Source: an uncultured bacterium (lineage in GTDB: Bacteria; Armatimonadota; Abditibacteriia; Abditibacteriales; Abditibacteriaceae). From it: a DNA stretch of 64,000 nucleotides. The stretch spans positions 1,984,001-2,048,000 of the forward strand of contig CAWJLW010000006.1 in the NCBI GenBank assembly GCA_963843795.1. The letters run 5' to 3'. Made by a program: the position numbers and the translations under genes. The first letter of the stretch is position 1. Each line of letters begins with the position of its first letter. Positions 216 through 63,943 of this stretch are shown one piece after another. The notes beneath the pieces are model-generated. The model saw only the letters and a program-made list of their open reading frames with translations, was not told the DNA's origin and ran no database searches.

Positions 216-3200
216 ATGCAAGTACTTGCACCGCGTTTTTCACTCTGCTTTCTGTTACTGCTCTGCACTTTCGCGCGCGCCCAAAACGGGGCGGATAATT
301 GGCAAAAATTTCTTGCGCCACCAGAGCTATCGCCAACCAACTTTCTTTTCACGGTTCAATCCAATGGCGATCAGGCCGAAGGGCAACTTCTGCTGGGGCA
401 AGATGGCTCGTGGCAGGTGCAAGTACTTGCTGGGCCAAATCCAGCGCGCGCAATTATCGGCAATGGCAAAGAAACGCGCGTTGTGGATAACGCGACCAAA
501 CGCGTGCAACGCTTCGATTTCGATGCGCTGAATGAATGGTTTCGGGGCTTCGATGTAGACAACGGCGGGCCGGCGAACGTTTGGCTACGGCCTTCACCGC
601 AACTGGTCGCGCAAAATTACGATGTAAAAATGAGCAGCGTTGGCGGGCAAACCGTGCTCGATTTGACCGCTAATGCGCGTGGCAGGTACTTGCAGCGCGA
701 GGGCGTTCTGGTCGGCGGTGCCGGCGGCGGACGTTATTACGCGGCGCGCAAGATTCCGGCTTGGAACCGACCTTATCGCATTCAATTGAAATTTTCGGCT
801 CCGCAAGTACTTGCCATGCGCACCGATTTCGCGCCCGATAATCGGGTGTTGCAAATGCTGGATTACAGCTACGAAAACGCGCGTCCAAAAACCATCACAG
901 TGCGCGATGCCGATAAACGTGTGCTGGCGACGTGGAGTTATCAGTGGTCAACACCTGATCCAACCGCACCCCCCGGTTTTGTCCTGCCCGATGCGCCAAT
1001 TATCGAAGAAAACACCCCAGGCGAAAATTTCGCCAATCAGGCGTCGCAGGTGTGGAATCAGGGCGTGATTCAAACGCGACGGGAAGATTGGCGCTCGGCG
1101 TTGGCTTCGTTCGCACGCGCCGGACAACTCGCGCCCGCAGCGTTAGCTGCGCCCAGCGCGCAGTTCGATGCCGCGCTGCAAGTGCGAGATACCGCAGCAA
1201 CTTTGGATGCCTTGGCGCACATCGCGAAAATCGCGGGCGACAGCGATTATGAAACCATTTCGCGTCGCTTGCGCTGGTACAGCTTGCAACGCGATTCAAC
1301 CGCGGCGCGCGCCGATTTAAATGCGCTGGCTGCCGATAAAACGCCACGTTCGCAATGGCTGCGCGCGACGACGTGGCGCACTTTGGGCGACCAAGCCGCT
1401 GCCGTTCAAGCGGCCCGCGAGACTTTGGATAATCCGCAAACGCCAGCTAGTCTCGCTTTCGATGCCGCCGCATTTTTGATTGAAATCGCGCCCGCGACTT
1501 TGGCCGCCGAAATCGAAAAAAATACAACCAACGCTCCCGCGCATCAAATTGCCGCACGTTTACTGCGCAACCAAGTCACACCCTTGAGCGCCGCACAACT
1601 CCAAGAAAATGTCACACATGTACGCGCGCTGGTCTTGGTGGCGCGCACGTTGGAAGCACGCGGAGAGGACACGACAACGGTCTGGCAAAAAATCGTGGAC
1701 ACGGCGACAACTCCGCTGCAACAAATCGCGCAACGCCAATTGATGGCGCTGGCCGCACAGCGCGGTGATGCCCCCGCAAGTCTCACGATTTACACCGATT
1801 TGGCTGGGAATTTGAGCGACAACGATGTGGCGAGTTTGCAAAATTACTTGTTCAACGCGTGGGATAAATCAGGCAACATCGAAAAGCTGCGCGTTTCGAT
1901 GCAGAATCGCGCCATCAGCGTGCGCGCCCCTAGTTCCGACGCGCGTTTGTGGCTGGCTTATCAGCAGCAATACGCAAGCGCGGAGGAAGTTGCCAACAGC
2001 CTAAAAACCTTCGCGCTACGTTTTGGTGGTGCCAATGTTGATGGAAAAACGGCGGCGTGGTGGCACAGCGCGCTGGCCGAATATTATACCGGACAGGCCG
2101 AAACTGATAGCGTTTCGGGGACCAATTCCGTGCGCGACACTGCTTATCGCAACGCGCTGACGACGATTGACAAAGCCATTGGCGCTGATCCGGCAACGCG
2201 TTTTTATCAGATTCAAAAAGACTTGATCTCGATTCGTCGCGCCTCGCGCACCGCGCGCATTTCCGATGCAGGCACTGCGGTCGCCGAACGCGAAGCCGCA
2301 CAACGAGCGCTGGAACATCTGCGCACGCTTGATCCCGACGATCTCGATCTTCAAATCACCAGCGGCATCGCGCGCGTGGCAATGAACAAAGATACCGAGC
2401 AGGCGATTGCCGATTTTCGCGGTGCGATTGGTGGAGATGTCAGCTCTCCAGGTGCGCAACTCAACTTGCACGCAGCAATGCTGACGGCGAGGCAAGGTTT
2501 GGCCTCGGCTCTTTTGCAAAATAAAGATAACGCGGGCGCGCTGGCCGAATATGGACGTTTACTGGACGGCGCGCGCGAATCGGTGGTCGAAAGCGGCGTG
2601 GCGCTCAATGCGCTGAATGTTTTCGTCCCCACGCACGATGCAGTGGGCGCAGCAGGCTTGTCGGCACGTCTGGTAGCCGCGCCGTGGCGGTGGAGCGATA
2701 CGCAATCGCTGCTGGGCGACTGGTTTTCCGCTGTAGCGCGCCGTCCCGAATTTTTGCCCGCTGTGCGCGATGCGCTGGGCAAAAATTCCACAGCCGCCGC
2801 GCATTTAGCCGCTGCTTTAATCGACTTCACGCTTTTGGAAAATGCGCAGGCCAAAGCCGCGATGCCACAGGCCACTCCCGAAACCCGCGTCGCGCTTAAT
2901 CAGGTGGTCGCGCTGTGGCAAAATAGCGCGCAGCGCGTGCAGCAGATCGCTGCGAGCGATGATCCGATTTTATCACTGCAAGCTAACGCGCTCCTCGCCC
3001 AAGATGCCCTGACCAAACGCGATTACAACACTGCCGCAACTTACTACGCAGCAGCCATCGCGCGCGAACCGCTCGATTTGAACTTGCGTTTGGCTTATAC
3101 CAGCGCATTGGCCGCTGCGCCCGCGAACGTTGAGAACACAGACAAAATTATCGCAGCCCGCGACGATTACCTGCTGCGCGCGGGTCGCAGCGTTCTCAAT

Positions 3201-3575
3201 CTGCGCTACGCGGCGTCGATGTCGCTGCAAGCCCAACGCAATCAGGACGCCGTGGATTTGGCGCGCGAAGCTTTTCAGCGCGCGACCTTCGATGATAGCC
3301 AACTTTGGTTGTGGCGCGAAAGCGCTTTTCTCTATGCGCGTGCTCTGGCAGCGAACGGCAATAACGACGAAGCACAAAAACGGCTCACCAATTTGAGCGC
3401 GGCGCGCTGGGAAACTTTCCAACGCGTGGCCGCCTTGCAAGACGCGGCACGTCTGGCGCGCGCCGATGGCAAAGAACCCGAAGCCGCGCGTTTGGAGGCG
3501 CAAATACAAGGCATGGGTGCGAGCGCTCAAGATATGGCTTCAGCTCAAAACTTTCTGCGCGGTTTGGACGGTTGA
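216..3575 (+). CDS. Large secreted protein: beta-rich (LolA-like) N-terminal region followed by TPR-like helical repeats
   Basis: 1119-aa ORF with a signal peptide (FSLCFLLLLCTFARA-Q) and Ala/Leu-rich TPR-like helices. The domain names are pattern-based guesses. Confidence 0.7.
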   Translation: MQVLAPRFSLCFLLLLCTFARAQNGADNWQKFLAPPELSPTNFLFTVQSNGDQAEGQLLLGQDGSWQVQVLAGPNPARAIIGNGKETRVVDNATKRVQRFDFDALNEWFRGFDVDNGGPANVWLRPSPQLVAQNYDVKMSSVGGQTVLDLTANARGRYLQREGVLVGGAGGGRYYAARKIPAWNRPYRIQLKFSAPQVLAMRTDFAPDNRVLQMLDYSYENARPKTITVRDADKRVLATWSYQWSTPDPTAPPGFVLPDAPIIEENTPGENFANQASQVWNQGVIQTRREDWRSALASFARAGQLAPAALAAPSAQFDAALQVRDTAATLDALAHIAKIAGDSDYETISRRLRWYSLQRDSTAARADLNALAADKTPRSQWLRATTWRTLGDQAAAVQAARETLDNPQTPASLAFDAAAFLIEIAPATLAAEIEKNTTNAPAHQIAARLLRNQVTPLSAAQLQENVTHVRALVLVARTLEARGEDTTTVWQKIVDTATTPLQQIAQRQLMALAAQRGDAPASLTIYTDLAGNLSDNDVASLQNYLFNAWDKSGNIEKLRVSMQNRAISVRAPSSDARLWLAYQQQYASAEEVANSLKTFALRFGGANVDGKTAAWWHSALAEYYTGQAETDSVSGTNSVRDTAYRNALTTIDKAIGADPATRFYQIQKDLISIRRASRTARISDAGTAVAEREAAQRALEHLRTLDPDDLDLQITSGIARVAMNKDTEQAIADFRGAIGGDVSSPGAQLNLHAAMLTARQGLASALLQNKDNAGALAEYGRLLDGARESVVESGVALNALNVFVPTHDAVGAAGLSARLVAAPWRWSDTQSLLGDWFSAVARRPEFLPAVRDALGKNSTAAAHLAAALIDFTLLENAQAKAAMPQATPETRVALNQVVALWQNSAQRVQQIAASDDPILSLQANALLAQDALTKRDYNTAATYYAAAIAREPLDLNLRLAYTSALAAAPANVENTDKIIAARDDYLLRAGRSVLNLRYAASMSLQAQRNQDAVDLAREAFQRATFDDSQLWLWRESAFLYARALAANGNNDEAQKRLTNLSAARWETFQRVAALQDAARLARADGKEPEAARLEAQIQGMGASAQDMASAQNFLRGLDG

Positions 3576-3608
3576 AGTGCGCTGCAAGTACTTGCAGCGC
3601 ACTTCAAC
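3571..3608. terminator. 38-bp perfect palindrome centred on the motif, between convergent genes
   Basis: GTTGAAGTGCGCTGCAAGT/ACTTGCAGCGCACTTCAAC. It contains both stop codons and has no clear U-tract. Confidence 0.6.
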
Positions 3609-13330: not shown

Positions 13331-13364
13331 AAAAGCGCCCTGCAAGTACTTGCAGGGCGCTTTT
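13331..13364. terminator. Bidirectional terminator; 34-bp perfect palindrome on the motif
   Basis: AAAAGCGCCCTGCAAGTACTTGCAGGGCGCTTTT between convergent genes. Confidence 0.85.
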
Positions 13365-18827: not shown

Positions 18828-21800
18828 ATGAATTTCGCCCAGCTTATTGAGCAAACGCCGCGCGACCCCAACGCTCTCGACACGCTGTTAGCGCAACTCG
18901 GCTTTTTCGATCCCAGCGAAAAAAGTTCCGCTGCGCCAATTCAAAACGCCATCAGCGGCCATCGTTTCATCACGCCTGCCGGTGTCAAACCCAAAACTTC
19001 GCGTCGCAAAAAAGTATCTGTCGCGGCGCCCAGCCAAATGCCGATTGTCGCGCCTAACTCGACCCAACGCGCGCAGCGAGTTTTAGAAACCATCGCGCGC
19101 GACGAAGTGGAGCGCGCAGCGTGGCTGCAAATTGTGGACGCGGTGATGCAAGATTGCGCGCGCGCTTCCGACCCGTTCGTATCGCTGTTCAATCTGTCGC
19201 GTTTGAGCGAAGCGGTCTCCGACCGCGCCCTATTTTTCGTTGAATTGCAAGATGATGATTTTCGCGCGCGTTTGTGTCGTCTGCTTTCATTTTCGCAATC
19301 GCTGGCCGATTCGCTGATTCAAAATCCGCACTGGCTCGATTTGCACGCGCCCGCCCAACCGATTTCACGCCCGCAGTTGCGCATTTTGGCGCAAAAAGCG
19401 ATGGACGAATTTTCAACGCCAAACGAAAAATTGGATGCGCTACGACGTTTTCGCCAGCAGCATTTTTTGCGAATAGGCACGTTAGATTTGGAATCGCAAA
19501 CCTGGCGCGATGAAGCGGATTTTGCGATTGTAACGCAGCAAATTTCCGATTTGGCGCAAGTGTGCGTGCAAAAGGCGTTGCAGGTACTTGCACCGGACAA
19601 TCCGCCTTTTTGCGTTTTAATCATGGGCAAGGGCGGTGCGCGCGAATTGAACTATTCGTCTGATATCGACCTGATTTTTCTGCACAACGGCGAAAGTGAA
19701 GCTATGAGCGCCTTAGGCCGCAGTTTACTGCGCGAGCTGGGCGCGACGACCGCGAGCGGCACCTTATATCGCGTCGATATGCGTTTGCGGCCTGAGGGCA
19801 GCAGTGGACCGCTGACGACTTCGTTTGGCTACGCATTGAGCTATTACGAATCGTTCGCCGCGCCGTGGGAATGGCAAGCCTTGATAAAAGCGCGCGCAAT
19901 TGCAGGCGATGCCAAATTGGGCCGACGGTTTTTGCGTTTTACGCGCGGGGTGACGTGGGCGCGACGCGCCGACGACGATCATTTGCAAGCCATCGTAGAT
20001 ATGAAGCGACGCTCGGAAGCAACTGCTGACGGGCGCGATAATCTCAACGTAAAATCCGGACCGGGCGGCATTCGCGATGCCGAGTGGATCGTACAACAGT
20101 TGCAAATGATGGTTGGCCCGCAGCATCCGCGCGCGCGCGTGGCGGCGACACTGGACGCGTTGCAAGTACTTGCCGAACTTGATGCGCTGAGTTTTGAACA
20201 AGCGCGCGAACTGCGCGACGGTTATCTATTTCTGCGCGTTTTAGAGCATCGGTTGCAATTGTGGCAAGAGCGCGCAATTCGCAATTTGCCAACATCCGAA
20301 GCGGAGAAAGCGGCTTTGGCACGTCGCGTCGGTTGTCGCGCGCGCGGTGCCAGTGCGGCGCGCTGGCTAGACGAAGAACACGCGCGCCATCAGAAAAGTA
20401 TTCGCGCGCTGTGCGAACATTTGTTCTGGGGTTGGCGCCAATCATCGCGCGAAGCGGCCACAACTGCAGTGCACGGACTTGTACCGGACGCAGACGCCGA
20501 AATGCAAACGCGCTTGAATCGCTTGCAACGCGGCAGCGAAAATCAGCCGCTACCAGCACCTTTAGCACGACAAATCGGCGCGGTTTTGCCCGCCGCGTTG
20601 CAGCATTTGAACAGCGCCGCGCAGCCCGCACGCGCGCTGGCCAATCTGGAACGTTTGTGCGACAATAGCGGCAATCGCTTGAGCGTTCTGCGCGATTTGG
20701 CCGCTTCGCCCGATTTATCGAGCGCGATTTTCGCCATTTTGGGTGGCGCGCGCGAAGTCGCCGATACCCTGGTCGATACGCCAGAATTGTTGGATTTGGC
20801 GGCCCAGCGCTCTTTGCTGGCGCGCGGTCGTGATGAAAACGAAGCGCGCGCGGCGTGTCGCGATTACTGCCTGACTTTTCGCGATCGTCATGCGGCTTTA
20901 CGGCGCTGGAAACATCGCGAAATGTTGCGCATCGCGCTGCGCGATCTCAGCGTGCGCGCGCCCACCGTTCGCATCAGCGCGGGCATCTCTTATTTGTGCC
21001 GCGCCTGTTTGGAACTGGCTTTGGAAGAAATCGGACGCGAGTTGCATCCGAACTTGGGCGCGCTGGGTTTCGCCGTGTTGGGTATGGGAAAGTTGGGCGG
21101 TGCCGAAATGCATCCGGCTTCAGACGCTGATGTCATCTGGGTGCACGACGCGCCCGCCGATTGGGAAAATGCGGGCAAAATCGCCGCGCAACTGGCCAAT
21201 GAAATCACGCATTATTTGGGCGCGCACAGCGGCGGCGTGCGCGTTTGGGAAGTCGATGCGCGCCTGCGCCCCGAAGGTCGCAATGGAATTTTAGCGCCCT
21301 CGGTCGAAGGTTTCGTGCATTACTTCGAGCGTCAAAGCGGTGGTTTGAGCGTTTGGGAGCGACAAGCCTTGACGCGCGCGCGTTTCGTAGCGGGCGATGC
21401 GCGCACGGGCGCGCGCTTGATGGCCTTGATTCGTCACGTCGCTTATCCCGAAACGTGGCAAGCGCAATGGAGCGATGAACTGCGCCACATTAAACATCGC
21501 GTCGAAACCGAACGCGCGCGCGCCGGAAGCGAGACGATTTACGATGTGAAATTGGGACGCGGCGCGCTCAGCGACATCGAATGGGCGGCGCAATGGCTGG
21601 CGATGAAACACGGCGCGCAATTTCTCGAATTGCAGCGCCCGAACACGCTGCAAGTACTTGCAGCCGCCAAAGATGCGCAGTTGTTGGGTGAAAGCGAAGA
21701 ACGCGCTTTGCGCGAAGCGTATGAGTTTTTGCAGCGCGCCCAAATTCGCCTGCATTGGGCGCTGGACAATCCAAGCGCCGCGCAAATCGAAAATTCAATC

Positions 21801-21935
21801 GCGTGGCAAAGCTGGGCCGGCGCAGTTTTCCCCGAATTGTCGCGTGAGGCGGCGTGTGAAGAATTTGCCAATCAATGGAAAATGCACACGAGTGCGGTTC
21901 GTAACGTGTTTGAACGTGTGCGCGATGCGTTGTGA
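18828..21935 (+). CDS. glnE: Glutamine synthetase adenylyltransferase / adenylyl-removing enzyme
   Basis: Two nucleotidyltransferase modules: MGKGGARELNYSSDIDL...VDMRLRPEG and MGKLGG...SDAD...VDARLRPEG. Confidence 0.93.
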   Translation: MNFAQLIEQTPRDPNALDTLLAQLGFFDPSEKSSAAPIQNAISGHRFITPAGVKPKTSRRKKVSVAAPSQMPIVAPNSTQRAQRVLETIARDEVERAAWLQIVDAVMQDCARASDPFVSLFNLSRLSEAVSDRALFFVELQDDDFRARLCRLLSFSQSLADSLIQNPHWLDLHAPAQPISRPQLRILAQKAMDEFSTPNEKLDALRRFRQQHFLRIGTLDLESQTWRDEADFAIVTQQISDLAQVCVQKALQVLAPDNPPFCVLIMGKGGARELNYSSDIDLIFLHNGESEAMSALGRSLLRELGATTASGTLYRVDMRLRPEGSSGPLTTSFGYALSYYESFAAPWEWQALIKARAIAGDAKLGRRFLRFTRGVTWARRADDDHLQAIVDMKRRSEATADGRDNLNVKSGPGGIRDAEWIVQQLQMMVGPQHPRARVAATLDALQVLAELDALSFEQARELRDGYLFLRVLEHRLQLWQERAIRNLPTSEAEKAALARRVGCRARGASAARWLDEEHARHQKSIRALCEHLFWGWRQSSREAATTAVHGLVPDADAEMQTRLNRLQRGSENQPLPAPLARQIGAVLPAALQHLNSAAQPARALANLERLCDNSGNRLSVLRDLAASPDLSSAIFAILGGAREVADTLVDTPELLDLAAQRSLLARGRDENEARAACRDYCLTFRDRHAALRRWKHREMLRIALRDLSVRAPTVRISAGISYLCRACLELALEEIGRELHPNLGALGFAVLGMGKLGGAEMHPASDADVIWVHDAPADWENAGKIAAQLANEITHYLGAHSGGVRVWEVDARLRPEGRNGILAPSVEGFVHYFERQSGGLSVWERQALTRARFVAGDARTGARLMALIRHVAYPETWQAQWSDELRHIKHRVETERARAGSETIYDVKLGRGALSDIEWAAQWLAMKHGAQFLELQRPNTLQVLAAAKDAQLLGESEERALREAYEFLQRAQIRLHWALDNPSAAQIENSIAWQSWAGAVFPELSREAACEEFANQWKMHTSAVRNVFERVRDAL

Positions 21936-21937
21936 AA

Positions 21938-22360
21938 TCAAACACTTTTATTGATGCGCTTTTGCAAGGCGCGAAAGAACAGACAAAAATAGTAAACGGC
22001 ACTTCCAGCTAAAAACAATGTCGGTGCCACCAAACCAATAACAAGAGTGGGTTCAGGTTGAGAATTGCCCGGAAAAGATTGCAAGGTTTGCAACGCGCGC
22101 CAAGCAACCAACACAAACGAAATCAAGGACGCACTTAAAAAACAAGCCATAGCGCCCTTCAGAAAAATTTGCAATTTCCGTTGCGAGTCGGGCGCGAGAC
22201 GGCTGTAAACCCAAAACGCAGCACCGCCAACTATAGCGACAGCAGCGATGATCATAGCATCACTGAGCTGAAAAGAGGAATAAGCAGACCTGTCCAAGAA
22301 GATGACACTGCCCAAAGTAATCAACACACCGCAAATGGCGAGTTTGGAAGAACTAGTCAT
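21938..22360 (-). CDS. Hypothetical membrane protein (4 TM)
   Basis: 140-aa ORF with four hydrophobic segments. Confidence 0.65.
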   Translation of the reverse strand: MTSSSKLAICGVLITLGSVIFLDRSAYSSFQLSDAMIIAAVAIVGGAAFWVYSRLAPDSQRKLQIFLKGAMACFLSASLISFVLVAWRALQTLQSFPGNSQPEPTLVIGLVAPTLFLAGSAVYYFCLFFRALQKRINKSV

Positions 22361-22445
22361 GGCTCGTTCTCGTTTTATGAGATGAATTTCTAATAAATCA
22401 TCGTAATCAAATTTCTATCGCTGCATTTTGCGGCCAAGACCGTGC

Positions 22446-22477
22446 AAACTGTGCTGCGAGTACTTGCAGCACAGTTT
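22446..22477. repeat. 32-bp near-perfect palindrome on a motif variant, in a divergent promoter region
   Basis: AAACTGTGCTGCGAGTACTTGCAGCACAGTTT. Confidence 0.85.
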
Positions 22478-22539
22478 AGAGACACACATATTCGTGCATG
22501 TACTTGGTTGCATTCTAACCTTAAGTATCAATCTCAATT

Positions 22540-25218
22540 ATGACTCATCCCGATTTAGTTTCCGACCTGCGCAAATACTTGCACGACGAGCGCACCGAAT
22601 TACTCCGCGTCCAATCGCCTGCGCGCATGGGACGCAACTGGCTCAAAGCGCACACTTCTGTCATCGACATCGTGCTGGCGCGCATCTACGAATTTGCGTG
22701 GGACAACGCGCGCGCCAGTTTGAACGAAAGCGAGCGCGCGCAGATGGAGCGCGAAGGCGGTTTGGCCTTAGTCGCGATTGGCGGTTACGGGCGCGGTGAG
22801 TTGTGTCCGCATTCCGACATTGACATCGCGTTTTTGGCCGCCGAGGAAGAAAATCATCTGCTCAATGGCGTGGTTAAAGAAGCCTTTCGTTTAATTGTCG
22901 AAATTCTCATCGACGGCGAAAAGTTGGATGTTTCTTATTCTTACCGGCCTTTGATTGATATGGGACGACTCGACCCGAAAGATAAAACTTCGCTCCTCGA
23001 CGCGCGCCTCCTCGCGGGCAGCCCGTGGCTTATCGAGCGCGCCCTGCATGATTTGCACGATCATTGGGACGGCGTGGAATATTTGCTGGACAAAGAGCGC
23101 GAGCGGCGCGAAGTCGGGCGGCAGATCGAGTATTCGATGTATGGCATCGAGCCGCATCTCAAAGAAGGCAGCGGAATGTTGCGCGATTTGCAAAGCGCGC
23201 TATGGGTAACTTCAGCGATGCTGGAAACCAATGAACCAATGCGCGAACTGGAATGGCGCGGCATTGTGACCGGCGACGATTGCGAGCGCGCCATTAAAGC
23301 GCGCGATTGGATGCTGAGCATTCGGACTTGGCTTCACTTAGTCGAAGACCGTAAAACCGATGTGCTGCGCGTCGATTTGCAAGATCGTTGTGCTCGCTGG
23401 CGCGGCTTTACTGGCATCGGCGCTGTGCCTTCGCAATTGTTGCTCGGCGAAGGTTATCAACACGCCGAAGCGACACACAATTTCGCTTTTAAAGTGTTTC
23501 GGCGCTTGCTCGATGGCACGCTGCATTTGGACGACCATTTCGTGGCTCATCATCAGCGCGTCAAATGCGCACACCCTTATATGTTGTCCAACCATCCCGA
23601 ATTGCTCATCGCACCATTTGCTCAGGCCCGCAAATATGGTTTTGGTCTGGACAGCGAACTCGACCGCGCAGTCGAGGAAGCTTTGCCTCTGGTCGATGAT
23701 AAAACACGCACTTCACCGATTGCGCGCGCCGGTTTGTGGTCGTTGTTGGAACATCCCGAAAGTGCGGCTGAAGCCTTGACCGAACTGCGTGAACGTGGAG
23801 TTTTGCAGCGTTTTATTCCCGAATTTGAAAGTATGCTGCGTTTGGCGCCCGCCGACCCTTCGCATCAGTTGACGGTTGGAGAACACTCGCTTGAAGCGCT
23901 GCGCCAGATGGCGCGCCTGTATGAAGAGCGCAACGAGGACGACGAAATGTATGCGGTATGGAGCGGCGTCGATGACCGTCAATTATTAATGCTTGCCACG
24001 CTGCTGCACGACGTCGGCAAAATTCAGCAGGGAACGGATCATTCGGTTTCGGGCGAAAAGTTGGCCAAGAAAATCGGGACGCGTCTGGGTCTGAGTGGCG
24101 AACGCTTGAAGCGTTTGGGCGTTTTGGTGCGGCGTCATCTGCTTTTGCCGCGCGCGGCACGTTTGCGCGATTTGAATGCGCCGGGCACGACCAAAGAAGT
24201 GATGAAATTTGTCAACGATGTTTCCACTCTAAAAATGCTTTATCTGCTGTCGATTGCCGATACCTGCGCGGTTGGCGAACGCACTTATTCGCGCACCGAT
24301 TTGGAAGGCATGCGCGAAATTTACGAGCGCACTTTGCTGGCGATGACGCGCGACGAAGCCGCCGAAGTGCTGACCGATAGTGAAAAGCGCGAGCAGATGG
24401 TGCAACGCGAACGCGTGCGTTTGCGGCGCGAACTGCGCAATTTCGAGTGGGACGACGACACGCTCAAGCGCGTCACGGACAGCCTACCGACTTCATATAT
24501 TTTGAATACGCCGCTGCCAGTTATCGCCACGCACATGAAGTTCATGGAGCAACTGCCGCGCGAAAAACTCATCGTCGATTTCACCACGACAGCGGGCGGC
24601 AATCGCACCGAAATGACGGTTGTGACTTATGATGATGCTGAGCCAGGTCTGCTATCGAAAATTTGCGGTGTGATTCACGCCATCGGAGCCGAAACCAAAG
24701 CCGCGCACGTTTACACTCTGCACGTCACTGAAGCGATTGGAGATGAGCATCCGCCCGACCGCGACATCGTTTTGGATCGTTTGAAACTGGAACACAAAGG
24801 CCGCGCTTTGCCCGAAGCGCGTTGCGCGCGTCTGGCGGCAGCGCTGCGCGAAGTGATCGTCGGCGGTCGCGATGTGGAAGATGTGATTAAAAGCGCGGGC
24901 AAAGAAGCTCACGCCCGCGTCGTGCCTCAACGCATCGAAGCGCGCAACGATTTATCGGATGAGCACACCGTTATTAACGTGGTAAGCGATAACACATCGG
25001 GCTTGCTGTATGCGATTACCGACACACTGGCCGATATGAGCATGGACATTCACACCGCGAAAATCACCAGTTGGGGCGGTCGCGCCGAAGATGCGTTTTA
25101 CGTCACCCGTCGTCCCGAAAACGGCAACGGCTTGTCGATTACTTCGACCAAACCCGACGACGACGACATCAGCGAACTCATGGAAACCCTGCGTGACCGC
25201 TTGATTCGCGCCAAATAA
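22540..25218 (+). CDS. glnD: [Protein-PII] uridylyltransferase
   Basis: AIGGYGRGELCPHSDIDI, EPHLKEG.G.LRD, HD domain (LLHDVGK) and two C-terminal ACT domains. Confidence 0.93.
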   Translation: MTHPDLVSDLRKYLHDERTELLRVQSPARMGRNWLKAHTSVIDIVLARIYEFAWDNARASLNESERAQMEREGGLALVAIGGYGRGELCPHSDIDIAFLAAEEENHLLNGVVKEAFRLIVEILIDGEKLDVSYSYRPLIDMGRLDPKDKTSLLDARLLAGSPWLIERALHDLHDHWDGVEYLLDKERERREVGRQIEYSMYGIEPHLKEGSGMLRDLQSALWVTSAMLETNEPMRELEWRGIVTGDDCERAIKARDWMLSIRTWLHLVEDRKTDVLRVDLQDRCARWRGFTGIGAVPSQLLLGEGYQHAEATHNFAFKVFRRLLDGTLHLDDHFVAHHQRVKCAHPYMLSNHPELLIAPFAQARKYGFGLDSELDRAVEEALPLVDDKTRTSPIARAGLWSLLEHPESAAEALTELRERGVLQRFIPEFESMLRLAPADPSHQLTVGEHSLEALRQMARLYEERNEDDEMYAVWSGVDDRQLLMLATLLHDVGKIQQGTDHSVSGEKLAKKIGTRLGLSGERLKRLGVLVRRHLLLPRAARLRDLNAPGTTKEVMKFVNDVSTLKMLYLLSIADTCAVGERTYSRTDLEGMREIYERTLLAMTRDEAAEVLTDSEKREQMVQRERVRLRRELRNFEWDDDTLKRVTDSLPTSYILNTPLPVIATHMKFMEQLPREKLIVDFTTTAGGNRTEMTVVTYDDAEPGLLSKICGVIHAIGAETKAAHVYTLHVTEAIGDEHPPDRDIVLDRLKLEHKGRALPEARCARLAAALREVIVGGRDVEDVIKSAGKEAHARVVPQRIEARNDLSDEHTVINVVSDNTSGLLYAITDTLADMSMDIHTAKITSWGGRAEDAFYVTRRPENGNGLSITSTKPDDDDISELMETLRDRLIRAK

Positions 25219-35320: not shown

Positions 35321-35382
35321 CGTTTCGCTAACGCGTGCTCGCGCGACGCGCTGCAAGTACTTGCACAGCGTATAATGCGTTC

Positions 35383-36194: not shown

Positions 36195-36228
36195 AAAAGC
36201 GCGCTGCAAGTACTTGCAGCGCGCTTTT
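36195..36228. terminator. Bidirectional terminator; 34-bp perfect palindrome on the motif
   Basis: AAAAGCGCGCTGCAAGTACTTGCAGCGCGCTTTT between convergent genes. Confidence 0.85.
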
Positions 36229-36242: not shown

Positions 36243-39200
36243 TCAGTGCAAACGTACCAACAAATCTTTGCTATCGACGGTATCACCGACGGCAACGGTG
36301 ATTTCATCGACCACACCATCTTCGGGTGCGTTGATTGTGGTGTACATTTTCATTGCTTCGAGCGTCACCAATTTATCACCTTTGCTCACTTTGCCACCGA
36401 CCGAGCAACCGATGCTTGTCACCATGCCGGGAATGGGCGCGCCGATTTGCTTATTGTCGCCCGCTTCGGCTTTGGGCCGCGTTACGACCTGTATCGCCAA
36501 GTTTTTATCAACAATCGAGGCGCTGCGCGCCATGCCGTTGAGTTCAAAGTTCACTGAACGCCGTCCGTCTTTATCGGGCGCGCCAACCGAGATTAGCTTG
36601 ATTATCAAGGTTTTTCCGGCTTCGATTTCGACAGCGATTTCTTCGTCTAACTGCAAACCGTAGAAATAAGCGGGCGTTGGCAAAACGGAAACATCGCCGA
36701 ACTGCTCGACAAACTTGGCAAATTCGGCCTGCACTTGCGGATACATCAAGGCATCGTATAAATCGTCGTCTGTGGCCGCGCGATCCAGTTGATCTTCCAA
36801 CACTTCCGAAAGCTTTGCGCGCTCGCCATCCAAATCTAAAGGCGGCAAATCTTCGCCGGGACGTTTATCGGAAGCGGGTTTATCGCCTAAAACCACCCGC
36901 TGCAATTGTTCGGGCCAGCCGCCCAGCGGTTGACCCAGACCGCCCGAGAGCATATCAATCACCGATTCGGGAAACGGCGTCGTGCCCGGCTCCAAATTCA
37001 GAATATCTTGCGGCTTGATGCCGCGCGTGATGCAGAACATCGCTAAATCGCCGACGACTTTGGAACTTGGCGTTACCTTCACGATGTCGCCGAACAAATC
37101 GTTCACTTCCGCATAGGTGCGCGCGATTTCCGGCCAACGCGAACTCAATCCCATGCCAGCGGCTTGCTCTTTTAAATTGGTATATTGACCGCCCGGCATT
37201 TCGTGCAAGTAGACTTCGGCGGTGCCACTGCGCGGCGCGGTATCGAAGGGCGCGTAAAACGCCGAGACTCCCTCGAAATAATCGCTGATTTCGTTCAGCG
37301 CGTCCAAATCCAAACCGGTATCGCGCTCGGTGTGTTCTAAAGCCGCGACGACCGAATTTAAGTTTGGCTGTGCCGTCGAACCCGACCACGCGGCCAAAGC
37401 CAAATCGACAATATCGACGCCCGCTTCGCTGGCTTTCAAGACGCTGGCCGCATTGATGCCGCTGGTGTCATGCGTGTGAAAATGAATAGGCAAACCGATT
37501 TCATCGCGCAACGCGGCTACCAAACGCTGCGCTGCATACGGACGGCACAAGCCGGCCATATCTTTAATCGCCAGAACATGCGCCCCCATGCTTTCCAGTT
37601 CTTTAGCCAAATCAACGTAATAGCGCAGCGTGTATTTATCGCGCGTGGGGTCGAGAATATCACCGGTGTAGCAAATCGCGGCTTCGCAAACCGCGTGCGT
37701 GTTCTGCACCGCTTCCATCGCCACACGCAAATTCGGCACATAGTTCAAGCTGTCGAAAATACGGAAAATGTCGATGCCCGATTCCGCTGCATGGGTGACA
37801 AATCCAGCGACGACGTTATCCGGATAATTCGAATATCCGACAGCGTTGCTACCGCGAAACAGCATTTGAAAGCAGATATTGGGAATTTTTTCGCGCAGAT
37901 GGCGCAAACGCTCCCAAGGGTCTTCGCGCAGAAAACGCATCGAAGTATCGAAAGTCGCGCCACCCCACATTTCCAATGAATACAATTGCGGTGCGCGCCG
38001 CGCAATCGCGTCCGCCGCGCGCAACATATCGTAAGTGCGCACGCGCGTGGCGAAAAGCGATTGATGCGCATCGCGCAAGGTCGTATCCGTGACTAACAAT
38101 TGCTTTTGCTCGCGCGTCCAATGAGCAAAGTTACGCGCGCCCAGTTCAAGCAACTTTTGGCGCGTGCCAGAAGGTGCAAGTACTTGCGGGTCGTAAGAAG
38201 GCGCTTTCACGGTCGCAAAGGTAGATGCGGGCTGAAAACCTTTGGAGTTGGGGTTGCCATTGACAATGGTTTCGCCCAGGAAATTGAGCAATTTGGTAGC
38301 GCGGTCGCGGCGCGGCGAGAAATCGAAAAGCGAAGGCGTGCTATCAATCAGCGTGGTTGTGGCCTGACCGCTGCGAAAAGTCGGATCGGCGACAACGTTT
38401 TCCAGAAACGGAATATTGGTCTTAACACCGCGCACGCGAAACTCGCGCAAACCGCGATCTAACCTGTCCAACGCTTGCTCGAAAGTGCGCGCGCTGGCAG
38501 TTAGTTTCACCAAAAGCGAATCGTAAAATGGCGTTATCACTGTGCCGACGCCCGCCATGCCGCCATCCAGACGAATGCCGAAACCAGCGGCCGAACGATA
38601 GGCGACGATTTTTCCATAATCGGGCGTAAAATTGTTCTCCGGGTCTTCGGTCGTGATGCGCGCCTGCACCGCGTAGCCGTTACGCGGAATCGCGTCTTGC
38701 GCGGGAATGCCAATTTCATCGCCGTGCAAAAGCAAACCTTGCGCGATTAAGATTTGCGAGCGCACAAGGTCAATGCCAGTAATCTGTTCGGTCACGGTGT
38801 GCTCGACTTGAATGCGCGGATTCATTTCGATGAAGAACCATTCGTCGGCGTCAATATCAAGCAAGAATTCCACCGTGCCCGCATTATCGTAGCCAATTTC
38901 GCGCGCCAGACGCGCTGCGGCGTCGCATAATTCATGGCGCACTTGCTCATTCAAATTTATGCTGGGCGCGATTTCAATGACTTTCTGATGGCGGCGCTGC
39001 ACGCTGCAATCGCGTTCGTGCAAATGCACCGCTTCGCCGTGTTGATCGCCTAAAATCTGCACTTCGATGTGCTTGGCGCGCGCGATATATTTCTCCAAAA
39101 ACACGCTGCTATCGCCAAAAGCGCGACCAGCTTCGCCTTGCGCTTCGTCCAAAAGCGCATCCAAATCTTCTTCGCGATGCACCACGCGCATTCCGCGCCC

Positions 39201-42313: not shown

Positions 42314-44194
42314 ATGGCAACCAAAAAAAGAAGTAAAACACCCAATCCGGCGCTCGCTCCCAAAGTGACACACAGTCACGAGCTGATTGGCGCGGCGATA
42401 GAATTGGGCACCATTTTGCGCACCGCCAAAATCGAACCCGCCTTGCGCTCGCGCGTAATCGGTGCCATTATCGCAGCGCTTGCCCAAAGCGAAATCAACT
42501 CAGCGCCAAAATTTGCTTTGCAATCTATCAATCTGGGATTAGAGAAAACTATCCATAGTTTCAAACATTGCGATTTACAAAAACAAAGCAATCTAATTGA
42601 TGCTCTCACGCTCTCGGGTGCCGCTTTCGCCAATCTCCCGCCCTGCGTCGCTTCGATTGTGGCGATTTTAGAAAAATTGAATGTGCGCGTTTTGTTACAA
42701 ACCGATACCGATTTTCTGGGAATGTTTTATGAAGCATTTTTGCGTTACGGCTCTGATAACAATGCTCTGGGCGTCGTGTTCACGCCCCGCCACATCACAC
42801 GTTTTTGCGTGGAATTGGCCGACGTTGGCCCTAAAGATCGCGTGATTGACATTGCTTCGGGTACTGGCGGTTTTTTGGTGGCCGCGTTCGATACGATGAT
42901 GGCGCAAGCGAAAACGCCAAAGATGCGCGAGAAAATCAAAAATGCTCTGACGGGCTTTGATACTAATCCGACGGTATGGGCGCTGGCTTCATTGAATATG
43001 TTTTTTCGCGGCGATGGCAAGAGTCATATTCAGTTGGGAAGTTCGTTAGAACAACAGCATAGAGACGAAGTTGCCGGTCGTTTCACGCGCGCGTTTCTTA
43101 ATCCGCCCTTTTCACAGCGCGGCGAACCCGAACGAGATTTTCTCGACGCTTCAATGAATGCTTTAGAACCCGAAGGCCTTTTAACGGCTGTGGTCGCGGC
43201 GGGCATTTTCGCCGATGATGAACATAAAAACTGGCGCGTGCGCTTTCTCAAAAATCATTCGCTGCTGGCAATGATTAATTTACCGGACGATTTGTTTTAT
43301 CCCACCGCCGCGCCATCTTCGTTATTGGTCGCGCGCGCTCATGTGCCGCAAGATTCAGCAGCACCCGTGATGTTAGCGCGAGTTTGGAATGATGGCTTTG
43401 AAAAAACAAAAGGCCGCCGTATCGATCGTGAGGGCAGCCAACTCCCCGAAATCAAAAGGGCTTACCGCGCACTGCAAAATGGCAAAAACATAAATTCCGA
43501 ATTTGCGACTATTGTTCCAGGGGCAGCAATTCAAAACGGCGCAGAATGGAGCGCGCAGCAGCATTTGCCGCAGCCAAAACTTTCACCAGACGAATTACGA
43601 GAACAGCAAAGTGCGGTGCAGAAATCTATTTATCAAGCCATCGCTCAAATGCCAGAACTGGCCGATATTATCAGCGAAAATTTCACTGAGCACTGGGCGT
43701 ATCAAGACGCTTTGGCGTTAAATCTTCAAGGTACAATTGAAGATTTTTTCACGGTCGAAACCGGGCGTTCCTTGGGTGAAAAGAATTATCTTGATGGAAC
43801 ATTGCCTTATATTTCCAGCGGTGACAGTTTCAATAGCATTGTGCGCTTAGTCGAAGGCGATAGAACGCAAATTATAAATGATGCCGCGATCACAGTCACA
43901 GCGTTTGGAAAAGCGTGCGTGCAGCCGTGGCCGTTTCTGGCGCGCGGCAATGGTGGCAGCGCGGTACGCGTGTTGCGCCCGAATTTTGCGATGAATTTTC
44001 GAGAACTGGTGTGGTTTGCCGCACAAATCAACGCCCACAAATGGCGCTTTTTTTATGCGCGCATGGCGATCAAATCGCGTCTGGAACGTTTGATAGTGTG
44101 CAGTCCAAGCGTTCAAATGCCAGATGAGTGCAATTTGGCCGCTAACGTTCGTGCATTTAAAAACTCGCTCGACGAATATAGTCGCATTGATTAA
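42314..44194 (+). CDS. N6-adenine DNA methyltransferase (HsdM / type IIG-like) with a fused C-terminal specificity domain
   Basis: GVVFTPRHI, motif I DIASGTGGFL, motif IV NPPF, and a C-terminal TRD-like segment (LPYISS...ITV...VRVLRP). Confidence 0.85.
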   Translation: MATKKRSKTPNPALAPKVTHSHELIGAAIELGTILRTAKIEPALRSRVIGAIIAALAQSEINSAPKFALQSINLGLEKTIHSFKHCDLQKQSNLIDALTLSGAAFANLPPCVASIVAILEKLNVRVLLQTDTDFLGMFYEAFLRYGSDNNALGVVFTPRHITRFCVELADVGPKDRVIDIASGTGGFLVAAFDTMMAQAKTPKMREKIKNALTGFDTNPTVWALASLNMFFRGDGKSHIQLGSSLEQQHRDEVAGRFTRAFLNPPFSQRGEPERDFLDASMNALEPEGLLTAVVAAGIFADDEHKNWRVRFLKNHSLLAMINLPDDLFYPTAAPSSLLVARAHVPQDSAAPVMLARVWNDGFEKTKGRRIDREGSQLPEIKRAYRALQNGKNINSEFATIVPGAAIQNGAEWSAQQHLPQPKLSPDELREQQSAVQKSIYQAIAQMPELADIISENFTEHWAYQDALALNLQGTIEDFFTVETGRSLGEKNYLDGTLPYISSGDSFNSIVRLVEGDRTQIINDAAITVTAFGKACVQPWPFLARGNGGSAVRVLRPNFAMNFRELVWFAAQINAHKWRFFYARMAIKSRLERLIVCSPSVQMPDECNLAANVRAFKNSLDEYSRID

Positions 44195-44198: not shown

Positions 44199-44230
44199 AA
44201 AGCGCGCTGCAAGTACTTGCAGCGCGCTTT
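44199..44230. terminator. Bidirectional terminator; 32-bp perfect palindrome on the motif
   Basis: AAAGCGCGCTGCAAGTACTTGCAGCGCGCTTT between convergent genes. Confidence 0.85.
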
Positions 44231-51005: not shown

Positions 51006-51051
51006 ACGTATAAAAGCCCGCTGCAAGTACTTGCAGCGGGCTTTTATACGT
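51006..51051. terminator. 46-bp perfect palindrome on the motif (terminator)
   Basis: ACGTATAAAAGCCCGCTGCAAGT/ACTTGCAGCGGGCTTTTATACGT. Confidence 0.85.
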
Positions 51052-56951: not shown

Positions 56952-57005
56952 GAAAAGCCAAAAATGCCCGCTGCAAGTACTTGCAGCGGGCATTTTTGGC
57001 TTTTC
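56952..57005. terminator. 54-bp perfect palindrome on the motif (bidirectional terminator)
   Basis: GAAAAGCCAAAAATGCCCGCTGCAAGT/ACTTGCAGCGGGCATTTTTGGCTTTTC. Confidence 0.88.
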
Positions 57006-59483: not shown

Positions 59484-59649
59484 GAAAAGCGAAGCGCAAG
59501 TACTTGCAGCGGGGTTTACCCTGCTCGCTTGATTCCATCAGCGATCTTGCTAAATTCAAAAACGCCATTGAAAGTTAGATTCGCGGCCACGTCATCTCTC
59601 ACCTCTAACTCATCGGCATCCCCACATCCAAAACAACCACTGCAAGTAC

Positions 59650-59678
59650 TTGCACCAGCGCGCTACTCCATCTATACT
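59650..59678 (+). promoter_or_regulatory. Candidate sigma70-type promoter for recA
   Basis: TTGCAC (right arm of a motif copy), 17-bp spacer, TATACT; about 60 bp before the recA ATG. Confidence 0.5.
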
Positions 59679-59739
59679 ATCGCTATCATTGAGGACAATG
59701 AAACCGATTCGATAAATCAATTGAGAGAGGAAAAAAGAT

Positions 59740-60858
59740 ATGGCACGCGAAAAGACAGGGCCGAGTAAAGTGGAGCAGGCGATTGCCAGCGCCAACGGCA
59801 GCAACAGCGACAAAATGAAATCGCTGGACGAAGCCGTTTTGCGCATGGAAAAAACTTTTGGCAAAGGTTCGATCATGCGTTTGGGCGAGCGCACACATAT
59901 GCAGGTCGATACCACACCGACCGGAAGCTTAAGTTTGGACGTGGCTTTGGGCGGCGGTTTGCCGCGCGGTCGCATGGTGGAAATTTTCGGTGCCGAAGGT
60001 GGCGGAAAGACGACGCTGGTTTTACATTGTATCGCCGAAATGCAAAAGTCGGGCGGCATCTGCGCTTTCATCGACGCCGAGCACGCGCTCGACCCGAAAT
60101 ACGCCAAAACTCTGGGCGTCGATATCGATAACTTGTTTATTTCGCAGCCGGACAACGGCGAGCAAGCCCTGGAAATTGCCGATACTTTAGTGCGTTCGGG
60201 CGCGATTGACATGGTCGTCATCGACTCTGTTGCCGCTCTCACACCGCGCGCGGAAATCGAAGGGGAAATGGGCGACTTGCAGGTCGGCGCAATGGCGCGC
60301 ATGATGAGCCAAGGTTGTCGCAAATTGGCTTCGTCCGTTGGTCGCGCCAATGCGACAGCGATTTTCATTAACCAGATTCGTGAGAAAATTGGCGTGATGT
60401 ATGGCTCGCCCGAGACCACACCAGGTGGTCGCGCCCTGAAATTTTTCGCCAGCGTTCGTATGCGCGTCAGTCGCGGAGAGCAGATGAAAGACGGAACCGT
60501 GCCGATTGGCAACCGCACCAAAGTGCGCGTTGATAAGAACAAAATTGCGCCGCCGTTCCGCGAAGCCGAATTCGATTTGATTTACGGCAAGGGCATCAAC
60601 AAATACGGCGACATTTTGGATTTGGCGGTTGGCAAAGGCCTGATTCAAAAAGGCGGCGCGTGGTTCACGGTCGGAGAAGAACGTTTTCAAGGCCGCGACA
60701 ACGTGCGTCAGTATTTGGAAGAAAATCCCGAATTCGCCGATGATCTGGAAAACCAGATTCGCATCGCGTATGATTTGCGCCCTGTCGGCGAAAAAGTTCC
60801 GGTTTCGCCCGATGCTGATAAAGACGACGAAGAATTTAGCGAAGACGACGACGCGTAA
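59740..60858 (+). CDS. recA: Recombinase RecA
   Basis: [34 protein letters not shown] and IFINQIR.KIGV.YG.PETT.GG.ALKF. Confidence 0.98.
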
Positions 60859-60875
60859 ATCGTGTTGGTCGGAAA

Positions 60876-60913
60876 CAAAAATCCCGCTGCAAGTACTTGC
60901 AGCGGGATTTTTG
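60876..60913. terminator. Bidirectional terminator; 38-bp perfect palindrome on the motif
   Basis: CAAAAATCCCGCTGCAAGTACTTGCAGCGGGATTTTTG between convergent genes. Confidence 0.85.
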
Positions 60914-62701: not shown

Positions 62702-63943
62702 TTAAGTGTGGTATTCGGCGTTGATTTTAACGTAGTCATACGAAAAATCACACGTCCAAGCTGTCCAATTGGACGCGCCTGCGCCAATGCGCACGCGAAT
62801 CGTCAAATCTTCGTGGCTCATCGCAGTTTCAGCTTCTGAAACATCGAAATTCAACGGCTCACCGTTCTCGAAAACTTTCACGTCACCGATTTCAATCGAC
62901 AACTGGGCCGCATCGAAATCGACACCAGCGCGTCCCGCCGCCATTGCCAAACGGCCCCAGTTCGGGTCGCGACCAAAAATCGCGGTTTTTACCAGAGGGG
63001 AATTGGCGATTGTCATCGCAATTTTTTTGGCGTCGCCTTCGGTGTTGGCGCCCGTAACCTCAATCGTAACCAGCTTAGTCGCGCCTTCGCCATCGCGCGC
63101 AATTTTGCGCGCCAATTCGTCGCAAACCTGCTGCAGCAATTGTATAAATTGCTCTTGATTATCGTCATCGATTTCGACGCCGCTCTGCCCGCCCGCAATC
63201 AGAATTGCGGTGTCGTTGGTTGAAGTGTCGCCATCGACAGTGACGGAGTTGAACGAGCGCGCAACGGCCCGCTCCAGCAAAGTTTGCAAACGCGCTTTGT
63301 CGATTTTCGCGTCGGTTGTCAAAAACGCCAGCATCGTGGCGTGTAAATTCGTGCTGCAAGTACTTGTGGGAACGAAATGCGCCATGTCGGGGCCAATCAT
63401 GCCGACGCCCTTGGCCTGTCCGCCGACCGTCACAATGTGGCCGTCGATTTCGGTTTGCGCGGCGCAGTGTTTGGGCACGACATCGGTTGTCATTGATGCG
63501 CGCGCGCTGGCTGCAGAAAATTCATCGCCATGACCCACTGCAAGTACTTGCAGCGCGCTTTCAACTTTTTCCAGTGGCAAAGCGTGGCCGATAATTCCGG
63601 TCGAGCAGATCAAAACTTCTTCGCTGACACAGCCGATTTTCTGTGCCGCCAGCTCGCACATTCTTTCGGCATTTTTCAAACCTTGCGCGCCGGTGCAGCA
63701 ATTCGCGTTGCCAGAATTGAACACGATGGCGCGCGTAGTCGCGTTGGTGGCGTGCTGCGCGCACACCAAAACTGGCGCGGCTTTGACCTGATTTTGTGTC
63801 CAGACCGCAGCAGCGACCGAGTTTTCGGGCGCGATAATTAATCCGACATCTTCGCCGCTTTGTTTGATGCCGCCGCGCGCGCCACCGGCTTGAAAACCGC
63901 GCGGCGACGCGACGCCACCATTGGCAAGTACTTGCAGTGTCAT
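62702..63943 (-). CDS. argJ: Glutamate N-acetyltransferase ArgJ
   Basis: NSGNANC.TG, STGIIG, MTTD, AKG.GMI.P.M...ATML, DGDTSTND, DGEGATK and INAEYHT. Likely start is ATG 63943. Confidence 0.96.
   Translation of the reverse strand: MTLQVLANGGVASPRGFQAGGARGGIKQSGEDVGLIIAPENSVAAAVWTQNQVKAAPVLVCAQHATNATTRAIVFNSGNANCCTGAQGLKNAERMCELAAQKIGCVSEEVLICSTGIIGHALPLEKVESALQVLAVGHGDEFSAASARASMTTDVVPKHCAAQTEIDGHIVTVGGQAKGVGMIGPDMAHFVPTSTCSTNLHATMLAFLTTDAKIDKARLQTLLERAVARSFNSVTVDGDTSTNDTAILIAGGQSGVEIDDDNQEQFIQLLQQVCDELARKIARDGEGATKLVTIEVTGANTEGDAKKIAMTIANSPLVKTAIFGRDPNWGRLAMAAGRAGVDFDAAQLSIEIGDVKVFENGEPLNFDVSEAETAMSHEDLTIRVRIGAGASNWTAWTCDFSYDYVKINAEYHT

Follow-up and report, generated by a model that had tools for sequence, protein, structure and literature searches.

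A stretch of 64,000 nucleotides from an uncultured member of the Abditibacteriaceae (contig CAWJLW010000006.1; hereafter the window) is interspersed with a 12-bp palindrome, GCAAGTACTTGC, that recurs throughout the genome. The palindrome is real, and a genome-wide drive of the kind associated with highly iterated palindromes (HIP) and uptake sequences is supported, as it fits every test: the word originates by substitution, distorts proteins, is evenly spaced, is lost from foreign islands and takes the form of different dialects in different lineages. Our comparative analyses lead us to favor, with some reserve, the reading that the palindrome is a DNA uptake signal. It would represent a third such system, evolved in the Abditibacteriaceae independently of the DNA uptake sequences (DUS) of Neisseria and the uptake signal sequences (USS) of Pasteurellaceae.

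A palindrome iterated throughout the genome

The preliminary description of the window reported about 40 exact copies of the 12-mer and its frequent extension. We counted exactly 40 perfect copies, spanning positions 218 to 63935, and none in any of 100 dinucleotide shuffles; 20 of the 40 are extended to TGCAAGTACTTGCA and 16 to CTGCAAGTACTTGCAG, and 14 further sites match GCAAGTACTTGC with one mismatch. The genome (4,299,948 bases in 11 contigs, 92% complete; denoted G000, with C4 and C6 among its contigs) contains 2,567 perfect copies distributed over all 11 contigs, i.e., approximately one per 1.6 kb, along with 1,290 14-mers and 879 copies of CTGCAAGTACTTGCAG. This count bears out genome-wide over-representation, as Markov models of the motif-masked genome predict 0.12 copies at order 3, 7.4 at order 5 and 57 at order 7, the last value being inflated by near-copies. 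GCAAGTACTTGC is the top 12-mer of the genome, and its sub-words are the top 8- and 10-mers. Its consensus is sharp, with 2,567 perfect sites relative to 506 with one mismatch and 371 with two, a property stated for USS and DUS in the available text of PMC1626085. The averaged flanks read aaaa-gcgcgCT-core-AGcgcgc-tttt.

The density of copies is flat along C6, with no origin-to-terminus gradient seen. Depletion in islands, one of the checks proposed earlier, was observed: the palindrome is missing from C6:56-82 kb and 518-543 kb, each of ~26 kb, where our reading of the translations identified a type I restriction system along with insertion sequence (IS) elements. The final 33 kb of C6, whose end has 67% GC and VirB-like genes, also lack it. 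That contig end, without the motif and with VirB-type genes (C6:3,600,000-3,623,414), is either a foreign element or a chimeric join.

An artifact was ruled out because independent metagenome assemblies of related species contain the palindrome at high density, which also shows that it is not confined to the window or to one assembly. A metagenome scan for the word yielded 33 loci. Of these, 28 come from related species in which copies are dense (1-6 in each locus of 3-10 kb), with GC of 62-69% and, in the aligned parts, 66-80% nucleotide identity; the other 5 lack a homologue in G000. Contigs of run X1, which may be the source sample, span the copies at 35353 and 39798 with zero differences there. 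Scanning genome contigs with the 16-mer returned at least 36 single, chance-like matches in unrelated taxa. Six viral loci have one copy apiece, and no RNA carrier of the word was found among the matches listed. A phage- or satellite-like contig (L256, 1960-5040) carries, within 5 kb, 5 perfect copies and 10 occurrences of AGTACT, with a concentration in its replication module. Loci L253 and L255 are likewise phage- or satellite-like, and we read helicase, primase-like and tape-measure-like open reading frames (ORFs) across the three loci. The literature searched has no mention of GCAAGTACTTGC, nor of AGTACT as an overrepresented bacterial palindrome, and literature listings contain no report of such a motif in the Abditibacteriaceae lineage; an earlier mention is possible in subscription papers, most of which were outside our reach. 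The motif thus appears to be undescribed, as first proposed.

We made our own gene calls (3,462 genes, 86% coding, in an assembly with frameshifts) to place the copies. The 2,563 classified copies comprise 756 coding ones (~30%), 1,793 intergenic ones and 14 that span the end of a gene; in the window, 15 of the 40 are coding, and 6, 6 and 13 lie in convergent, divergent and tandem gaps, respectively. The presence of copies inside genes was thus confirmed, and the statement that most gaps of every type hold one can be refined to 51-64% of the gaps of at least 12 bp (convergent, 278/434; divergent, 235/454; tandem, 519/989 and 587/1183). Copies in convergent gaps have locus-specific stems and A/T tails, with a mean extension of 9.5 bp (0.9 bp for coding copies) that reaches at least 8 bp in 63% of them, and in three examples the copy folds into a hairpin whose loop is GUAC. 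At convergent gene ends, copies also serve as terminator hairpins, a use that is secondary because divergent gaps also hold copies.

Coding copies leave a mark on the proteome. The tetrapeptide QVLA occurs 569 times, relative to a permutation mean of 43, with the motif codons used in 506 of the 569, and ASTC occurs 133 times relative to 4. Such copies are scarcer in the most codon-adapted genes (0.13 vs 0.30/kb). From 219 alignments of orthologues we obtained 53 comparisons that cover a G000 copy, 19 of them at one pyruvate carboxylase site; outside this protein, 27 of 34 comparisons were gap-free by our own count. The relative retains AGTACT with its own flanks in 4 of the 53, and at the same pyruvate carboxylase linker, G006, G009, G012, G015 and G016 carry their own differing words (G numbers denote genomes). 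Point substitution at variable sites is the main origin of the word and often alters amino acids.

The copies are also spaced more evenly than by chance. The coefficient of variation of spacing is 0.755, relative to 0.840 +/- 0.012 in simulations in which intergenic copies were fixed and coding copies placed randomly, and lies below all 300 simulations. The density of coding copies rises fivefold, from 0.09/kb within 200 bp of an intergenic copy to 0.48/kb at 2-3 kb. Among genes of 600-1200 nt, those in which none, one or both of the flanks bear the motif have 0.37, 0.22 and 0.06 copies/kb, respectively, and gene ends beside a motif-bearing gap (0.11-0.15/kb) have half the density of those beside an empty gap (0.26-0.29/kb). 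Clusters of more than 6 copies per 1.5 kb do not occur in G000. In native chromosomal DNA, about one copy is maintained every 1-2 kb.

Word dialects and phased flanks in the family

Each of 40 database relatives has only 0-3 exact copies of GCAAGTACTTGC, because other words take its place there. Among 27 family genomes, 6 are rich in AGTACT (2,813-4,733 copies) and 21 have few (1-285), and none of 274 genomes sampled outside the family has an AGTACT-type excess. A dominant word was identified in 11 of the 27 genomes: seven have GTAC-core words, one of them non-palindromic, and the others use two unrelated non-palindromic words. The words are CAAAGTACTTTG in G001, TCGAGTACTCGA in G009, G015 and G019, GAGTACTC in G012 (common to G009 and G012), the non-palindromic AAGTACGGTCGAA in G006, CGTGGCTG in G007, G016 and G018, and CCACAAAAAATGAAG in G020; those of G006 and G020 were counted in 5 genomes each rather than in all 27. 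The inner core is thus shared by the seven GTAC-core genomes, the two further word groups have none in common with them, and in the remaining 16 genomes no dominant word was detected in samples of 24-97 kb. In G010, CACAGATGA was excluded as a dialect, being clustered in few loci.

Turnover of the words is evident among close relatives, as G020 has 2,295 copies of its word and its sister G042 has 25. In a tree of ComEC and pyruvate carboxylase (FastTree), GTAC words occur on several deep branches, and the other two word groups nest among motif-less genomes. The non-palindromic words are evenly distributed between strands (G006, 1473/1508; G007, 1530/1561; G016, 1773/1730; G018, 1348/1328; G020, 1191/1104). 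Close inverted pairs are frequent for those of G006, G016 and G020, as DUS too are described to form (PMC3630211). The G006 word, as AAAGTACGGTCGAATT, resembles the extended Haemophilus USS AAAGTGCGGTCAATTTT given in PMC12616744 but without its GCGG core, a likeness that is probably due to convergence or chance.

GTAC is nearly absent from many genomes without a GTAC-core dialect, with 0 observed and 24-38 expected in G005, G008, G013, G018 and G024; therefore, something acts on GTAC in the family. A GTAC-specific restriction or repair system may have acted on the GTAC-poor genomes. In the sampled loci, near-absence was seen in those five genomes (e.g., G018, 0 vs 38 expected) and in G007, G011, G014, G016, G020, G022, G041 and G042; GTAC is not depleted in G010, G021 and G023.

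The sequence around the core is organized as well. In G000, AA/TT/AT steps peak at approximately 15, 25, 36, 46, 57 and 67 bp on both sides, with a best period of 10.6 bp and an amplitude of 0.036, so that each copy centers a symmetric zone of ~140 bp of A/T tracts phased at 10.5 bp. Coding copies alone have a phasing amplitude of 0.031 relative to a null maximum of 0.007, and controls anchored on T tracts gave 0.007-0.008 with a different phase. Sites with one or two mismatches retain about half of the phasing signal, and those with three mismatches none. Pairs of intergenic copies separated by 16-110 bp keep helical phase (n = 171, R 0.33, higher than in any of 5,000 jitter nulls). These flanks suggest a planar bend centered on the TA step. 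The background AA/TT/AT periodicity of the genome is near 11.2 bp, unlike the 10.5-bp phasing at the motif.

Phasing is not restricted to this genome or to this family. At 30-75 bp from the core the amplitude is 0.028 in G000, 0.026 in G006, 0.053 in G007 plus G018 and 0.014 in G009. The same measure gave 0.030 for DUS (n = 84, p of 0.005 or less vs tract-anchored controls; Neisseria G043, 199 kb sampled) and 0.024 for USS (n = 95, p 0.005-0.045 vs tract-anchored controls; G347, 151 kb sampled, taken as a Pasteurellaceae genome from its 1,065 USS). At these DUS and USS (loci L315-L333), A/T phasing at 10.5 bp reaches beyond the flanking tracts known from the literature consulted.

A candidate receptor and the competing explanations

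If the palindrome serves as an uptake signal, the competence pilus would bind the word on outside double-stranded DNA, most likely through a ComZ-like tip pilin, and the phased flanks would make it less costly to loop the DNA for the secretin pore; kinking at the initiation of uptake has been described (PMC7811141). ComEC, ComEA, DprA and RecA would then import and recombine the DNA. Because tagged fragments would be taken up more often, tagged alleles would spread by drive until each kilobase-scale fragment has one copy, after which a second copy would add little. Copies near gene ends would later be extended into terminator hairpins.

Genes for such machinery occur throughout the family, with ComEC in 27 of 27 genomes, ComEA in 25, PilT in 24 and a large PilX-like protein in 25. 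G000 has PilB/T/C/D, pilins and a ComZ-like gene, together with DprA-like and ComM-like genes detected by a crude motif scan; 58 prepilin-type N-terminal motifs were also found in this genome. An Atlas cluster containing a pilin from one relative consists mostly of Armatimonadota members. The order pilB, pilT, pilC, pilD and four pilins was found in the 19 family genomes examined, followed in 17 of the 19, within the fetched stretch, by the large PilX-like gene. A similar arrangement, four pilins and then one large protein, is described for the Thermus locus pilA1-4-comZ (PMC6561018). The AlphaFold model of the large G009 protein (mean predicted local distance difference test score [pLDDT] 69.5) matches Thermus ComZ (6qvi) with Z 10.2 and a root mean square deviation (rmsd) of 4.6 over 259 aligned residues between model positions 79 and 1196, the longest stretch of any listed match. 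With a sub-domain model (pLDDT 93.8), ComZ was the top match at a modest Z of 5.6 (rmsd 4.0, 181 aligned).

The tree of the ComZ-like gene groups G009 with G012, both of which have GAGTACTC (98/97), whereas G012 joins the motif-less G017 in the trees of the pilus motor genes (99.4/98) and of the four pilins (96.7/85). The G009-G012 grouping is clearest at residues 700-900, which include a basic patch. All three CGTGGCTG genomes have a tandem pair of the ComZ-like gene, and the motif-less G017 also has several copies. On the strength of these models and trees, the ComZ-like tip pilin is a candidate receptor, a lead rather than a demonstration. We tentatively extend the uptake reading as follows. 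In this third independently evolved system of sequence-specific uptake, an enlarged ComZ-type tip pilin with swappable inserted domains might recognize the word of its species, whether or not it is a palindrome, at the apex of a pre-curved segment of ~140 bp; specificity might have been repeatedly gained, switched and lost within one family; and long-range phased curvature might be a trait common to uptake signals, including DUS and USS, that has been overlooked.

Several observations weigh against the uptake reading and its extension. USS are stated to be non-palindromic (PMC12616744) and the DUS word is no palindrome, whereas that of G000 is one. The 16 genomes in which no word was detected have the competence and ComZ-like genes just as often, so gene content does not follow the presence of the motif, and the correlation with competence genes proposed in the preliminary description did not emerge; the gene content of the pil locus is the same with and without the word, and by eye no feature of ComEA sequences separates the two groups. 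Ice-binding proteins, which PMC6561018 describes as the closest relatives of the ComZ solenoid, match the model with Z values (10.1-10.5) on a par with that of ComZ. Foldseek gave no match to the ComZ-like protein at E of 0.001 or less, and re-alignment listed only a small beta-barrel; sequence searches of this protein against PDB and Pfam returned nothing useful. The tree conflict is a single case, in which G017 has a long branch and G009 an atypical composition. In G000, the comZ-like gene, pilC and one pilin gene are split by frameshifts, probably because of assembly errors, the less probable alternative being that competence has been lost. As for the flanks, the DUS and USS controls are one genome each, those of G016 are not significantly phased (p 0.07 and 0.29), and the helical phasing of close pairs also suits cooperative intracellular binding. 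Finally, no gap filling was seen in genes longer than 2 kb (0.25, 0.27 and 0.21/kb), and the motif is denser in the replication module of the phage- or satellite-like contig L256 than in chromosomes.

The main rival explanation is a DNA-bending nucleoid protein. An abundant protein of the cytoplasm would then bind the word, bend or wrap ~140 bp and organize the nucleoid, with the site as a loop anchor or plectoneme tip, and selection would keep one site per 1-2 kb. Symmetric A/T phasing that extends to coding copies, helically phased intergenic pairs, even spacing and a dyad suited to a dimer are all consistent with such a protein, and the A/T phase around GCAAGTACTTGC matches the nucleosome pattern. 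We nevertheless consider this explanation unlikely. No dominant word was detected in the 24-97 kb sampled from 16 of 27 family genomes, and G020 and its sister G042 differ widely in copy number. Fixing thousands of new sites after a switch of specificity would presumably be hard without a drive. Density has no origin-terminus gradient, and no PF00808 histone fold was found in G000. DUS and USS are similarly phased, yet they are not known as nucleoid sites, and in-phase pairs could also follow from two curved zones having to agree.

The word could also act after entry or in repair. As a mark similar to Chi or HIP1, it would shield incoming DNA or stimulate recombination, and tagged alleles would still spread by drive. 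This possibility, which we rate as rather improbable, predicts the same substitution origin, spacing and island depletion as uptake, and HIP1 is reported to raise transformation, possibly by acting like Chi (10.1101/2024.09.10.611283). Word enrichment in the mobile L256 module is what mimicry of a self-mark would give. There is no replichore bias, however, and both orientations are mixed within 20-kb pieces of G006, G007, G016 and G018; flank asymmetry in G000 is balanced (365 vs 337), with one variant mildly skewed (42 vs 76). The long curved flanks in turn imply that double-stranded DNA is read.

Still less credible is a methylation ratchet, in which a methyltransferase for GTAC or AGTACT together with biased mismatch repair would drive the word upward, as proposed for cyanobacterial HIP1. 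The GTAC core common to seven dialects and the near-absence of GTAC from many genomes without them would suit it. However, the PF00145 and PF02086 profiles had no match in G000, and no C5 or Dam-type enzyme was found; because the assembly is 92% complete, a methyltransferase may be missing from it. The only PF01555 enzyme of G000 is M.RsrI-like (E 1.6e-36) and has orthologues 57-74% identical in genomes with and without the word; full-length orthologues of the window N6 enzyme were found only in G018 and the motif-less G008. The correlation with methyltransferase genes that had been suggested was not seen among the enzymes found, which do not track the word, although a sequence does not reveal an enzyme's specificity; no matching enzyme was found in G000. 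Words of 12-16 bp, unrelated non-palindromic words and curved flanks are also left unexplained. The M.RsrI-like beta-class gene (C6:2,517,365-2,518,135; L102) is apparently solitary and conserved across much of the family. Among the mechanisms initially envisaged, biased uptake has gained from the dialects, the DUS/USS-like phased flanks and the ComZ-like pilin, a chromosome-organizing protein is the main rival, and no candidate enzyme was found for methylation-coupled repair.

Two further explanations are highly improbable. The copies might be mobile hairpin elements, like repetitive extragenic palindromic (REP) or Ssn-associated sequences, spread by a transposase or nuclease; 70% are intergenic and many form hairpins, but stems are locus-specific, coding copies mostly align gap-free, the GIY-YIG matches of G000 sit in frames of 672 and 450 aa rather than in small Ssn-type proteins, and the single weak Y1 transposase match has 2 copies in its surrounding 3.3 kb, an ordinary density. 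The initial view that this is not an extragenic REP-type repeat is upheld by the 30% of coding copies, their gap-free origin and the lack of clustering. Equally doubtful is a strong DNA gyrase site. The Escherichia coli gyrase motif is similar in size and symmetric, spanning ~130 bp with 10.75-bp periodic flanks according to Table DS10 of PMC6379681, but it lacks a strict core, and the A+T profiles are anti-correlated when centers are aligned (r -0.48), matching only after a shift of -4 or +6 bp.

A packaging drive by phages or gene transfer agents was rejected, as Terminase_6N, the only terminase family searched, occurs in 3 of 5 motif-bearing genomes and is absent from G009 and G016; its sole location in G000 is the end of C4, where the region looks mobile. 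There, we read integrase-, replication-initiator-, ParA/ParB- and terminase-like ORFs (C4:80,000-100,350; L313). A search for genes with unusually dense flanking copies yielded no candidate reader.

Window features and relation to known systems

The copies in the window and the features associated with them are collected in Table 1. The glnE and glnD genes lie close together on the + strand within 18828-25218.

Table 1. Copies of the palindrome and associated features in the 64,000-nucleotide window
Position	Strand	Feature	Predicted RNA structure
218, 419, 803, 3584, 4090, 6165, 7975, 9131, 13342, 15123, 18166, 20162, 21650, 25224, 27504, 27946, 30305, 32015, 32084, 35353		Perfect copies 1-20 of 40 (starts)	
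36206, 38176, 39798, 40457, 44209, 46321, 46813, 48581, 49926, 51023, 53142, 53610, 54705, 56369, 56973, 59496, 59642, 60889, 63540, 63924		Perfect copies 21-40 of 40 (starts)	
3571..3608		Copy with 13-bp extension, forming a 38-bp locus-specific perfect palindrome in a convergent gap; terminator-like	Hairpin, GUAC loop, -33 kcal/mol (52-nt stretch)
13331..13364		Convergent-gap copy with A/T tails and a stem extended by 11 bp (terminator-like), downstream of dnaJ	
36195..36228		Convergent-gap copy fitting the family consensus aaaagcgcgCT-core-AGcgcgctttt, downstream of pyruvate carboxylase	
38176..38187	-	Coding copy in Q-V-L-A frame, variable linker of pyruvate carboxylase	
42314..44194	+	N6 DNA methyltransferase-domain gene; tested, no link to the motif	
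44199..44230		Convergent-gap hairpin copy, downstream of the N6 methyltransferase gene	
51006..51051		Tandem-gap copy, stem extended by 17 bp	
56952..57005		Copy, stem extended by 21 bp, that overlaps the ahcY 3' end	
59642..60900	+	recA (59740-60858), flanked upstream by a copy at 59642 and downstream by a hairpin copy at 60889	

In the literature consulted, two families are known to take up DNA in a sequence-specific way, and the function of HIP1-type palindromes has been open for three decades. The Abditibacteriaceae link the two subjects, as palindromic and non-palindromic words alternate among close relatives with the same density and layout. The motif-less sister genomes are natural controls, and the family offers a concrete candidate receptor gene; therefore, the origin, switching and loss of uptake specificity are directly testable. 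The ~140-bp phased flank makes a measurable prediction of how stiff DNA would be folded for entry, and the words can be used as lineage tags that help to bin contigs and to detect foreign DNA as well as mobile elements of these hosts.

Among known elements, the gyrase motif of E. coli and the BIME-2/REP sites share a symmetric zone of ~130-140 bp with helical A/T periodicity. They differ from the palindrome in the opposite phase at aligned centers, in the looser core of the gyrase motif and in the extragenic location of REPs. Unlike REP/RAYT and SRM/Ssn systems, the palindrome is 30% coding, of mostly gap-free origin and unclustered, with no small GIY-YIG protein, and unlike polar Chi and FtsK-orienting (KOPS) sites it is not skewed in orientation with the replichore.

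Cyanobacterial HIP1 (GCGATCGC) and alternate HIPs are closer. They too are described as iterated palindromes in coding and noncoding DNA, spread by substitution, spaced quasi-regularly and suspected of a link with transformation (PMC13756078). The present words are longer (12-16 bp), have no cognate methyltransferase among the enzymes found, turn over rapidly, including to non-palindromic relatives, and are strongly biased to intergenic DNA with terminator stems.

The pil locus is like pilA1-4-comZ of Thermus thermophilus in its four pilin genes followed by a large pilin and beta-solenoid protein with a fold match to 6qvi. The family protein has 1,250-1,400 aa with extra inserted domains, relative to 518 residues in 6qvi, and the available text of PMC6561018 describes DNA binding by ComZ and mentions no sequence preference.

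The closest parallels are the DUS of Neisseriaceae, whose receptor is ComP, and the USS of Pasteurellaceae, for which PpdA/ComN has been proposed. As reported for those systems, the words occur about once per 1-2 kb with a sharp consensus, arise by substitution at permissive sites, are spaced more evenly than random without strand bias and have been co-opted as terminators; dialects with a shared inner core are a parallel for the seven GTAC-core genomes, and A/T flanks in helical phase are a further likeness. The differences are another phylum, unrelated words, a perfect palindrome with symmetric flanks in G000, three unrelated word groups and many word-less genomes within one family, and, for an uptake role suggested here by sequence comparison, a candidate receptor of the ComZ-like tip pilin type rather than a small ComP- or PpdA-type pilin. 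GCAAGTACTTGC matches neither the CTG nor the GCGG inner core given for DUS and USS in PMC12616744. Judged by its sequence, the word is neither a DUS or USS nor a HIP word; at most, it would work like one of them.

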